Assembly: GCA_963717145.1 (NCBI GenBank)
Contig: OY970325.1
Location: 3,360,001-3,424,000, forward strand
Length of the DNA stretch: 64,000 nt
Reading direction: 5' to 3'
DNA from: an uncultured Armatimonadetes bacterium
GTDB taxonomy: Bacteria > Armatimonadota > UBA5829 > DTJY01
How positions within the stretch are numbered: position 1 is the stretch's first letter; every line of letters starts with the position of its first letter. A program made the position numbers and the translations under genes. This document shows, piece by piece, positions 47,759-47,945 of this stretch. The notes under the pieces are model-generated. The model did not search any database. It had not been told where the DNA came from and saw nothing but the letters and a program-made list of their open reading frames with translations.

Positions 47759-47796
47759 AAAAAACGGCCCGGACGCCTGCAATACGTCCGGGCCGT
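47759..47796 (-). terminator. Intrinsic terminator
   Basis: 12-bp stem acggcccggacg/cgtccgggccgt followed by a T run on the minus strand. Confidence 0.8.
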
Positions 47797-47911
47797 GGGA
47801 GACGGAACAGATCGGATAGGGAAGGAGAGTCCATCCGACCGTTCCCTGGGATTTGCACTTCAGCGCACAATAGCCCGATCGCCGGTCCGGCGACCCTGCT
47901 ACGGCTGAGTT
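47759..47911 (-). ncRNA. Candidate ~150-nt small RNA
   Basis: Near-consensus promoter, three hairpins and an intrinsic terminator; no ORF. Confidence 0.55.
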
Positions 47912-47916
47912 AAGAG

Positions 47917-47945
47917 ATTGTAAACCATAGCCCCGATAATGTCAA
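47917..47945 (-). promoter_or_regulatory. Sigma70 promoter of the candidate sRNA
   Basis: TTGACA-17-TACAAT. Confidence 0.75.

Follow-up and report, generated by a model that had tools for sequence, protein, structure and literature searches.

A candidate trans-acting small RNA gene with C/U-rich unpaired motifs conserved within one genus of Armatimonadetes

The window analyzed here, a 64-kb stretch of the genome of an uncultured Armatimonadetes bacterium, most likely contains a real, previously undescribed small RNA (sRNA) gene, whose fold and C/U-rich unpaired motifs appear to be kept in related soil and sediment bacteria. Structure prediction combined with comparative analysis suggests that the gene encodes an sRNA of the UCCC/C-rich class that stands alone and acts in trans to repress translation initiation, a reading to which we give a probability of about 0.55, the reality of the gene included. 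The expectation that it is transcribed and acts in trans on ribosome-binding sites draws on its consensus promoter and terminator, on its conservation, and on parallels with sRNAs that carry UCCC motifs.

Results

A promoter–terminator unit bordered by palindromic repeats

An earlier note on this DNA had claimed a TTGACA-17-TACAAT promoter on the minus strand and a terminator with a 12-bp stem and a U tract. Both are present, the promoter with 11 of 12 consensus matches and the terminator measured as 13 pairs followed by T6. Both signals are matches to a consensus and do not represent mapped RNA ends; they delimit the following predicted unit:

47940..47945, minus strand: -35 hexamer TTGACA (consensus scan, 11/12 together with the -10)
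47917..47922, minus strand: -10 hexamer TACAAT (consensus scan; 17-nt spacer to the -35)
47759..47911, minus strand: predicted transcript of ~153 nt (5′ end placed from the -10, 3′ end at the T tract)
47759..47796, minus strand: intrinsic terminator, with a 13-pair G+C-rich stem, a 7-nt loop and T6

Ten of the 13 pairs in the terminator stem (47796-47764) are G-C, and the T6 tract occupies 47764-47759. The consensus scan returned 2 promoter-like sites where 0.7 would be expected in 2.6 kb, and a loose terminator pattern was found once, against 2.1 expected in shuffles. Because the loose terminator pattern is by itself not above chance, a stricter script was run on the whole 5.37-Mb genome, accepting promoters with at least 11/12 matches and terminators with a perfect stem of at least 9 pairs plus T5. 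The script found 269 promoter matches and 20 perfect-stem terminators, and the only promoter–terminator pair 40–300 nt apart genome-wide is the sRNA locus, where a rough estimate puts the chance expectation for such a pair at ~0.1. The unit is single-copy in this genome, both by BLAST and by a covariance model (described below) that detects no paralogue at E ≤10.

Two palindromes, for which no strand is assigned, lie on either side of the unit and outside the RNA:

47964..48122: nested palindrome of ~160 nt, ending 19 nt upstream of the -35
47685..47747: perfect palindrome of 63 nt, directly after the terminator

The upstream palindrome has nested arms of 18 and 42 nt and belongs to a dispersed repeat family with at least six near-full copies (85–98% identity) and, in this genome, 92 match rows. 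The downstream palindrome has 27-nt perfect arms and likewise belongs to a dispersed family, with 107 match rows. Both repeats end outside the sRNA unit.

The predicted fold displays three UCCC motifs

The 154 nt from 47912 to 47759 have a minimum free energy of -76.2 kcal/mol, compared with -55.8 ± 4.4 for 200 dinucleotide shuffles (z -4.65), and 0 of the 200 shuffles fold as well. Upstream of the terminator, the predicted RNA is divided as follows:

47860..47908, minus strand: 5′ domain, with outer stem P1 and inner hairpin P1a (GUCGCCGG/CCGGCGAU) (RNAalifold)
47846..47859, minus strand: linker 1, single-stranded, 14 nt, with UCCC motif 1 (GCAAAUCCCAG; 47851-47848)
47804..47845, minus strand: hairpin P2, with a 15-pair stem, one bulge and the 11-nt loop ACUCUCCUUCC, which carries UCCC motif 2
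47796..47803, minus strand: linker 2, single-stranded, 8 nt, with UCCC motif 3 (47800-47797)

In the RNAalifold prediction from three aligned sequences, P1 joins alignment columns 4-14 with 38-52, P1a joins columns 17-24 with 28-35, and P2 joins columns 67-81 with 94-109 around a loop of 12 columns. P1a is the tcgccgg/ccggcga hairpin that had been proposed, and P2 bears out the proposed stem of ~15 bp with a C/U-rich loop, the loop lying at 47830-47820. A further proposed hairpin, tgcgc/gtgca, loses 2 of its 5 pairs in both relatives examined below.

The three UCCC motifs occupy the same places in 3/3 homologs and are predicted to be unpaired (0.67–0.99) in all of them. The probability of being unpaired is 0.99 for motif 1 in all three sequences, 0.67–0.74 for motif 2 in the P2 loop, and 0.96–0.98 for motif 3, where the letters around UCCC vary and UCCC itself is invariant. 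As a count, three UCCC in 153 nt of such composition is only mildly unusual, the chance expectation being ~0.8 by a rough estimate.

Homologs keep the loop core and the pairing of the stems

Homologs were sought in JGI metagenome contigs with a pattern composed of the promoter hexamers and the linker motif AAATCCCAGGGA; the loop was omitted because the test of its conservation had to stay unbiased. Two of the four loci found (L061 and L064) are chance matches in or adjoining coding sequence and were dropped from the alignment. The other two, L062 and L063, are clear homologs from same-genus relatives. Since the promoter hexamers and UCCC motif 1 formed part of the pattern, their conservation in L062 and L063 does not count as independent evidence.

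The sRNA aligns to L062:615-768 and L063:1535-1688 with 83% identity (26–27 differences in 154 columns). The M16 peptidase encoded beside it on these contigs shares 88% amino-acid identity with its orthologue in the sRNA's own genome, and its gene shows 76% identity at third codon positions and 73% (159/217) at fourfold-degenerate sites. At 83% versus 73% at the fourfold-degenerate sites, the sRNA is conserved above the neutral level. Alignment with both contigs fails beyond the terminator, and the middle of the promoter spacer diverges. Around the -10, TGGTTTACAATC is identical in both, the -10 hexamer itself being part of the search pattern, and the terminator is kept with one loop change and one G-U/G-C change.

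The C/U-rich loop passed the check on its conservation: its core, UCUCCUUCCC, is identical in 3/3 homologs though absent from the search pattern, as is the UCCC of linker 2, which the pattern likewise lacked. The invariant run extends from the loop into the 3′ arm of P2 (UCUCCUUCCCUAUCCG). The 5′ edge of the loop is variable, reading AC versus CAU through a 1-nt indel.

Across the 46 consensus pairs, 98.6% of cells hold standard pairs, and 4 pairs are changed on both sides: 17-35 (G-C/A-U) and 24-28 (G-C/G-U/A-U) in P1a, and 71-105 (C-G/U-A/U-G) and 74-101 (U-A/C-G) in P2. When the partners were slid by 1–3 columns as a control, 22–44% of cells paired, with 0–1 double-changed pairs. The outer 6 pairs of the 5′ domain show barely any variation; overall, variable columns number 12 of 92 paired versus 14 of 62 unpaired. 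The observed count of double-changed pairs was reached in 18 of 500 shuffles. The alignment consists of three full sequences from two lineages, and L062 and L063 are 97% alike, with contig ids so similar that both may come from one campaign; the covariation statistics are weak for this reason. The compensatory changes at 4 of 46 pairs are thus supportive, not conclusive, of a fold maintained in the relatives.

Contigs of four DNA runs in Logan, from four studies, were compared over 46500-47962 and also cover the unit, at 86–99.5% identity and within limits of 47756/60/66 to 47912/31/47; six contig pieces from this source were left out of the alignment. The runs listed for this stretch include none on record as RNA. 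Differences over length are 1/192 in run X7, 10/181 and 23/165 in X3, 13/295 in X1, and 24/172 and 22/153 in X6. The X6 and X7 contigs diverge from the window from 47756-47760, directly after the terminator and beside the downstream palindrome; the X1 contig continues across that palindrome up to the yabE promoter region. A loose end of X6 at 47931 also carries TTGACA, and two contigs of X6 have the same 1-nt insertion at the 5′ edge of the loop as L062 and L063.

The unit appears to be noncoding

The earlier note saw no ORF in the unit. Mechanical ORFs do in fact overlap it, one of 73 aa on the minus strand and two of 103 and 91 aa on the plus strand, and these are what a small protein gene on either strand would have to build on. 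The rest of the claim stood, in that no frame is conserved and the ORF translations have no Pfam match at E ≤0.1. The 1-nt loop indel in L062 and L063 shifts every crossing frame on both strands, and the only AUG, in GGAUGG, is AUA in the relatives. In addition, the minus-strand ORFs continue through the terminator, and a plus-strand AAGGAG has, on reading the sequence, no start codon at a workable distance. The frame-shifting indel, the lost AUG and the lack of a Pfam match together indicate that the unit is noncoding, and we regard a small protein gene as extremely improbable.

The neighboring genes differ between homologs

Downstream of the unit and on the same strand lies a yabE-like gene (DUF348-G5-3D), followed by KsgA; upstream and divergent is a B12-binding radical SAM gene whose two domains are in different frames. 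The closest YabE segment, at 49%, is from a Fimbriimonadaceae MAG, which, like the absence of Spo0A_C from the genome, fits the Armatimonadota label. The features of the downstream gene are:

46500-47324, minus strand: yabE-like CDS (DUF348-G5-3D), start probably the TTG at 47324
47517..47545, minus strand: its separate promoter, TTGACT-17-TAGAAT (consensus scan)

The own promoter that had been ascribed to the downstream gene is accordingly there, at 47545-47517. It is kept, together with a recognizable leader of ~190 nt, in 10/10 other family genomes, all of which are without the sRNA unit. In L062 and L063 the neighbors are different: an M16 peptidase gene lies divergently upstream, and a second consensus promoter, DUF485 and an ActP-type symporter lie downstream. 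The own-genome counterparts of M16 and DUF485-ActP lie a long way from the sRNA, at 4.09 and 4.63 Mb. The unit was claimed to be independent, and its conservation in same-genus relatives beside different neighbors, each downstream gene having its own promoter, upholds this.

These arrangements bear on the suggestion, also made in the earlier note, that the unit is an attenuator, i.e., a cis-acting leader in which terminated or read-through transcription controls the yabE-like gene. The unit is co-oriented with the downstream gene here and in L062/L063, and in its own genome its 5′ GCCGU is able to form 5/5 pairs with the terminator's 5′ arm, a pairing that had been pointed out. However, that anti-terminator pairing loses 2/5 pairs in both relatives, the gene downstream is yabE-like here versus DUF485-ActP there, and a consensus promoter follows the terminator for each of them. 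Moreover, ~435 nt that include a repeat element separate the unit from the yabE start, the family genomes keep the yabE promoter and leader with no sRNA unit before them, and there is no match to Rfam riboswitch, T-box or leader families. Since the neighbors changed between homologs, the attenuator is largely refuted, and we consider it very unlikely.

An M16 peptidase gene lies divergently upstream of yabE in 4/10 family genomes. Given this adjacency, both of the sRNA's adjacencies look ancestral, with the rearrangements falling just outside the unit. The ancestral order in the genus was likely M16 <- -> sRNA -> yabE; the breaks would then have fallen immediately before the sRNA promoter in one lineage and immediately behind the terminator in the other, a history that fits a discrete unit kept whole by selection. 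With two rearrangements and two mobile palindromes placed just outside its promoter and terminator, the locus is, on the sequence evidence, a well-bounded candidate unit.

The same observations weigh on a reading in which the unit has no function and is a chance promoter–terminator pair or a decaying remnant, such as repeat debris, that seems conserved through close kinship. Such a reading would suit a unit found within one genus only, sandwiched between two mobile palindromic repeat families and represented by few sequences (three full ones), the runs that cover it being DNA runs. Against it, identity is higher than at neutral-like sites and the flanks fail to align, the substitutions in stems preserve pairing and include the four double changes, and the unit survived rearrangements on both sides. 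The unit is also single-copy, unlike the repeats, which stop short of it. We therefore judge an absence of function to be distinctly unlikely.

The candidate appears restricted to one genus and matches no known family

The unit had been put forward as undescribed, and in line with this the 64-kb window has 0 matches to Rfam 15 at gathering score. At E ≤10 in 47300-48300, the only models over the unit are ncS037, scr5239, CC0196 and sX13, with 13.7–19.7 bits against gathering scores of 35–112. Stronger low-threshold Rfam rows are miRNA models sitting on the flanking palindromes and are artefacts. With the sX13 model (RF02232) the score is 13.7 bits (E 7.8), the gathering score being 50, so the unit is not a member of that family. 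The RsaE model (RF01820; cut-off 79 bits) has no match in the region at E ≤10 or in the whole genome at E ≤1; in a control search it exceeded the family cut-off in 1 of 14 control genomes, and Bacillus subtilis was among the 5 with a match.

A covariance model, R1, was built from the three sequences and scores the own copy at 175.9 bits. In searches with stricter filters, R1 found the sRNA in its own genome only, and in neither the 52 other genomes of the class nor a 150-genome phylum sample (53 and 151 genomes when its own is counted). Upstream of the yabE orthologue, 10/10 family genomes show no similarity to the unit. A BLAST search of the unit against 40 relatives gave a "match" in 30/40 at E ≤1, and the 8 inspected are short chance matches, apparently coding and in unrelated contexts. 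An origin from a mobile element was considered and dropped: the linker-plus-loop pattern has 0 matches in viral contigs, and a distant blastn search gave no plasmid match. Descent from the 3′ end of 16S rRNA was also rejected because the alignment (22/29, score 15) is not significant against shuffles (10.4 ± 1.9, maximum 21).

As far as searched, the family appears to occur only in a single genus of soil and sediment bacteria. The lack of a match in the genomes searched beyond that genus limits the age and importance that can be ascribed to the sRNA.

Possible pairing partners in the own genome

Of 3755 start regions delivered by crude gene prediction in the own genome, 2515 contain GGAG or GAGG. 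The 16S rRNA of this genome ends in ...CACCUCCUUUCU, and its 3′ tail shares CUCCUU with the loop core. Hfq is encoded in the same genome.

Targets were scanned with our own crude gene finder and RNAduplex over the 3755 start regions. The result of this crude method is unspecific, with no outstanding or conserved target. Loop-to-start-region energies correlate moderately with Shine-Dalgarno strength (r 0.37); the yabE start region ranks 2261/3755 for loop pairing, and the neighboring genes are unremarkable. A perfect 10-nt complement, GGGAAGGAGA, occurs in one start region only, that of a Hepar_II_III_C protein (own genome, G000, 1712044). This and an 879-aa protein without a Pfam family (G000 4671092) are the two best seed matches and serve as leads only. 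Extended pairing in the own genome, e.g., at G000 4671092, may not carry over to relatives, as the 5′ edge of the loop varies. Duplexes that involve the entire middle region would require the P2 stem to unfold and were set aside as unrealistic.

Discussion

The candidate has the features of a trans-encoded sRNA gene: consensus signals for an own promoter and a Rho-independent terminator, an intergenic position, no coding frame, and a structure and seed conserved apart from the neighbors (three sequences from two lineages, with coverage by contigs of four runs). In the mechanism that we propose, an own sigma-70-type promoter would transcribe an sRNA of ~150 nt, ended by the intrinsic terminator. 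The RNA is predicted to form three elements, namely a stem-loop domain at the 5′ end, a long hairpin in the center and the hairpin of the terminator, and to display three unpaired UCCC stretches, one in linker 1 (AAAUCCCAG), one in the central loop (UCUCCUUCCC) and one in linker 2 (UCCC). At least one of the C/U-rich stretches would pair in trans with the G-rich Shine-Dalgarno regions (GGAG/GGGA) of mRNAs, and the pairing may block 30S binding and lower translation, often also mRNA stability, as for UCCC/C-rich sRNAs elsewhere. We rate a trans-acting repressor as most likely because of the UCCC-class anatomy, in which a stabilizing stem-loop at the 5′ end is combined with exposed C/U-rich motifs and an intrinsic terminator, the wide use of Shine-Dalgarno sequences, the match to the 16S tail, and the presence of Hfq.

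Sequestration offers another account of the same anatomy. A conserved structured RNA could act otherwise than by repressing individual mRNAs, either by binding and titrating a protein that recognizes C/U loops or as a general Shine-Dalgarno decoy. Repeated, exposed copies of a short motif, here three, are typical of sponge RNAs, the target scan yields no specific standout, and the invariant stretch UCUCCUUCCCUAUCCG is longer than a Shine-Dalgarno complement needs. To our knowledge, however, no bacterial protein reads UCCC loops, and a single-copy RNA would require high abundance to serve as a decoy. In addition, the documented UCCC/C-rich sRNAs considered here all pair with mRNAs (PMC4132741, PMC2790875, PMC3771888, PMC6486639). 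We consider a sponge or decoy unlikely. More speculative still is the idea that the RNA is a mimic of the 16S 3′ tail, in which the UCUCCUUCCC loop and the two other UCCC stretches would compete with the 30S subunit for strong Shine-Dalgarno sites genome-wide. The RNA would then restrain translation globally instead of regulating a few genes, and would be the first riboregulator observed in a lineage that has hardly been studied; we hold this to be very unlikely.

Returning to the trans-acting repressor, the best reading of the candidate's likeness to RsaE, LhrC, sX13 and 6C is one of mechanism, not of family. RNAIII is a 514-nt dual-function RNA; the candidate is a short noncoding unit and shares with RNAIII a UCCC in a hairpin loop. 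In RNAIII of S. aureus, hairpin loops with UCCC make contact with target Shine-Dalgarno sequences, and most Rsa RNAs of the same species carry an unpaired UCCC (PMC2790875). Among these, RsaE binds its targets through the unpaired UCCC and keeps the initiation complex from forming (PMC2790875). Like the candidate, RsaE/RoxS (RF01820, Bacillales) is a stand-alone RNA, of ~100-150 nt, that has a promoter of its own and ends at an intrinsic terminator. It likewise carries several unpaired C-rich motifs (UCCC/CCCC), and in RsaE their pairing with Shine-Dalgarno regions blocks initiation (PMC2790875). In contrast, the candidate has a different fold and sequence, gives no match to the model, and resides in a genome from which Spo0A_C is absent; its central loop (UCUCCUUCCC) is C/U-mixed, whereas RsaE has a C run.

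LhrC of Listeria monocytogenes, like the candidate, has three redundant UCCC sites in loops and a single-stranded linker, and in LhrC4 each of the three is able to bind the G-rich stretch that precedes the start codon of lapB (PMC4132741). However, LhrC is multicopy and the candidate single-copy; LhrC uses its terminator loop, whereas that of the candidate (GUAUUGC) is without UCCC and 2/3 of the motifs are in linkers. Rfam detects no sequence relation between the two. In sX13 (Xanthomonadaceae), a three-stem-loop RNA of a G+C-rich host, as is the candidate, C-rich loops act against G-rich motifs near translation starts (PMC3771888); the candidate has its motif in 1/3 hairpin loops, and sX13 has 4C/5C runs. 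The 6C RNA of high-G+C Actinobacteria shares C-rich loops with the candidate, and those of 6C pair with G-rich ribosome-binding sites (PMC6486639). The 6C RNA is found phylum-wide and bears long C runs in two loops; the candidate has one C/U loop and two linkers, is genus-restricted as searched, and has no Rfam match. Collectively, by the tests run, the candidate is a putative new family of a well-known kind of regulator, outside RsaE, LhrC, sX13 and 6C.

A full-text literature search found no described sRNA for the Armatimonadetes lineage. The candidate leaves concepts of how sRNAs work unchanged, the covering of ribosome-binding sites being already well known. If expressed, it would establish a new sRNA family, in a lineage that this search linked to no described sRNA. 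It would also extend the use of UCCC/C-rich seeds against Shine-Dalgarno sequences beyond the Bacillota, Actinobacteria and Proteobacteria, which would fit convergent evolution.

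Genomic setting and terminator of the small RNA unit

In the two metagenome contigs from same-genus relatives that carry homologs of the candidate small RNA (L062 and L063), the unit lies divergently upstream of an M16 peptidase gene. The corresponding site upstream of the M16 orthologue in the window's own genome (genome positions 4090181-4090416, with the orthologue starting at 4090416, outside the window) is without the small RNA. The intrinsic terminator of the unit is unusual for this genome, because a strict script requiring a perfect, G+C-rich stem of at least 9 pairs with T5 after the hairpin recovered only 20 such structures in the whole 5.37 Mb; canonical intrinsic terminators thus look rare here.

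On either side, the unit is flanked by members of two dispersed palindromic repeat families, the first of which also forms a tandem array elsewhere in the genome:

Window 47964-48122: nested palindrome of ~160 nt, first family, 6 or more nearly complete copies with 85-98% identity
Window 47685-47747: perfect palindrome of 63 nt, second family, dozens of copies
Genome 4377245-4377851 (4.377 Mb): tandem array of ~64-nt half-units of the ~160-nt family

Next to the 63-nt palindrome, contigs covering the small RNA from two sequencing runs (X6 and X7) diverge from the window sequence, and such palindromic inserts may therefore differ from strain to strain. Divergent from the small RNA is a gene for a B12-binding radical SAM protein (48180-49612, plus strand) that appears frameshifted: its two domains lie in different reading frames, that of 48180-48680 for the B12-binding domain and that of 48215-49612 for Radical_SAM. 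Either the gene is a pseudogene or the assembly is in error here.

A conserved leader upstream of the yabE-like gene

The downstream yabE-like gene has a consensus promoter and a ~190-nt leader (both within window 47301-47545, minus strand) that are kept in all 10 other family genomes compared (loci L051-L060, upstream of the yabE orthologues), and a GCCCATAAT box is kept ~100 nt 5' of the promoter -35 element. Translation of the gene probably begins at TTG 47324 rather than at ATG 47339. Across the family genomes, the leader has a hairpin at its 5' terminus, whose pairing is retained though the sequence differs, and a conserved block, GATGTTT..TGGGTAA..GCCGGA-GGAGG; a small CC.CC/GG.GG pairing covers the Shine-Dalgarno site. 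No Rfam family matches the leader. It may represent an undescribed cis-regulatory leader.
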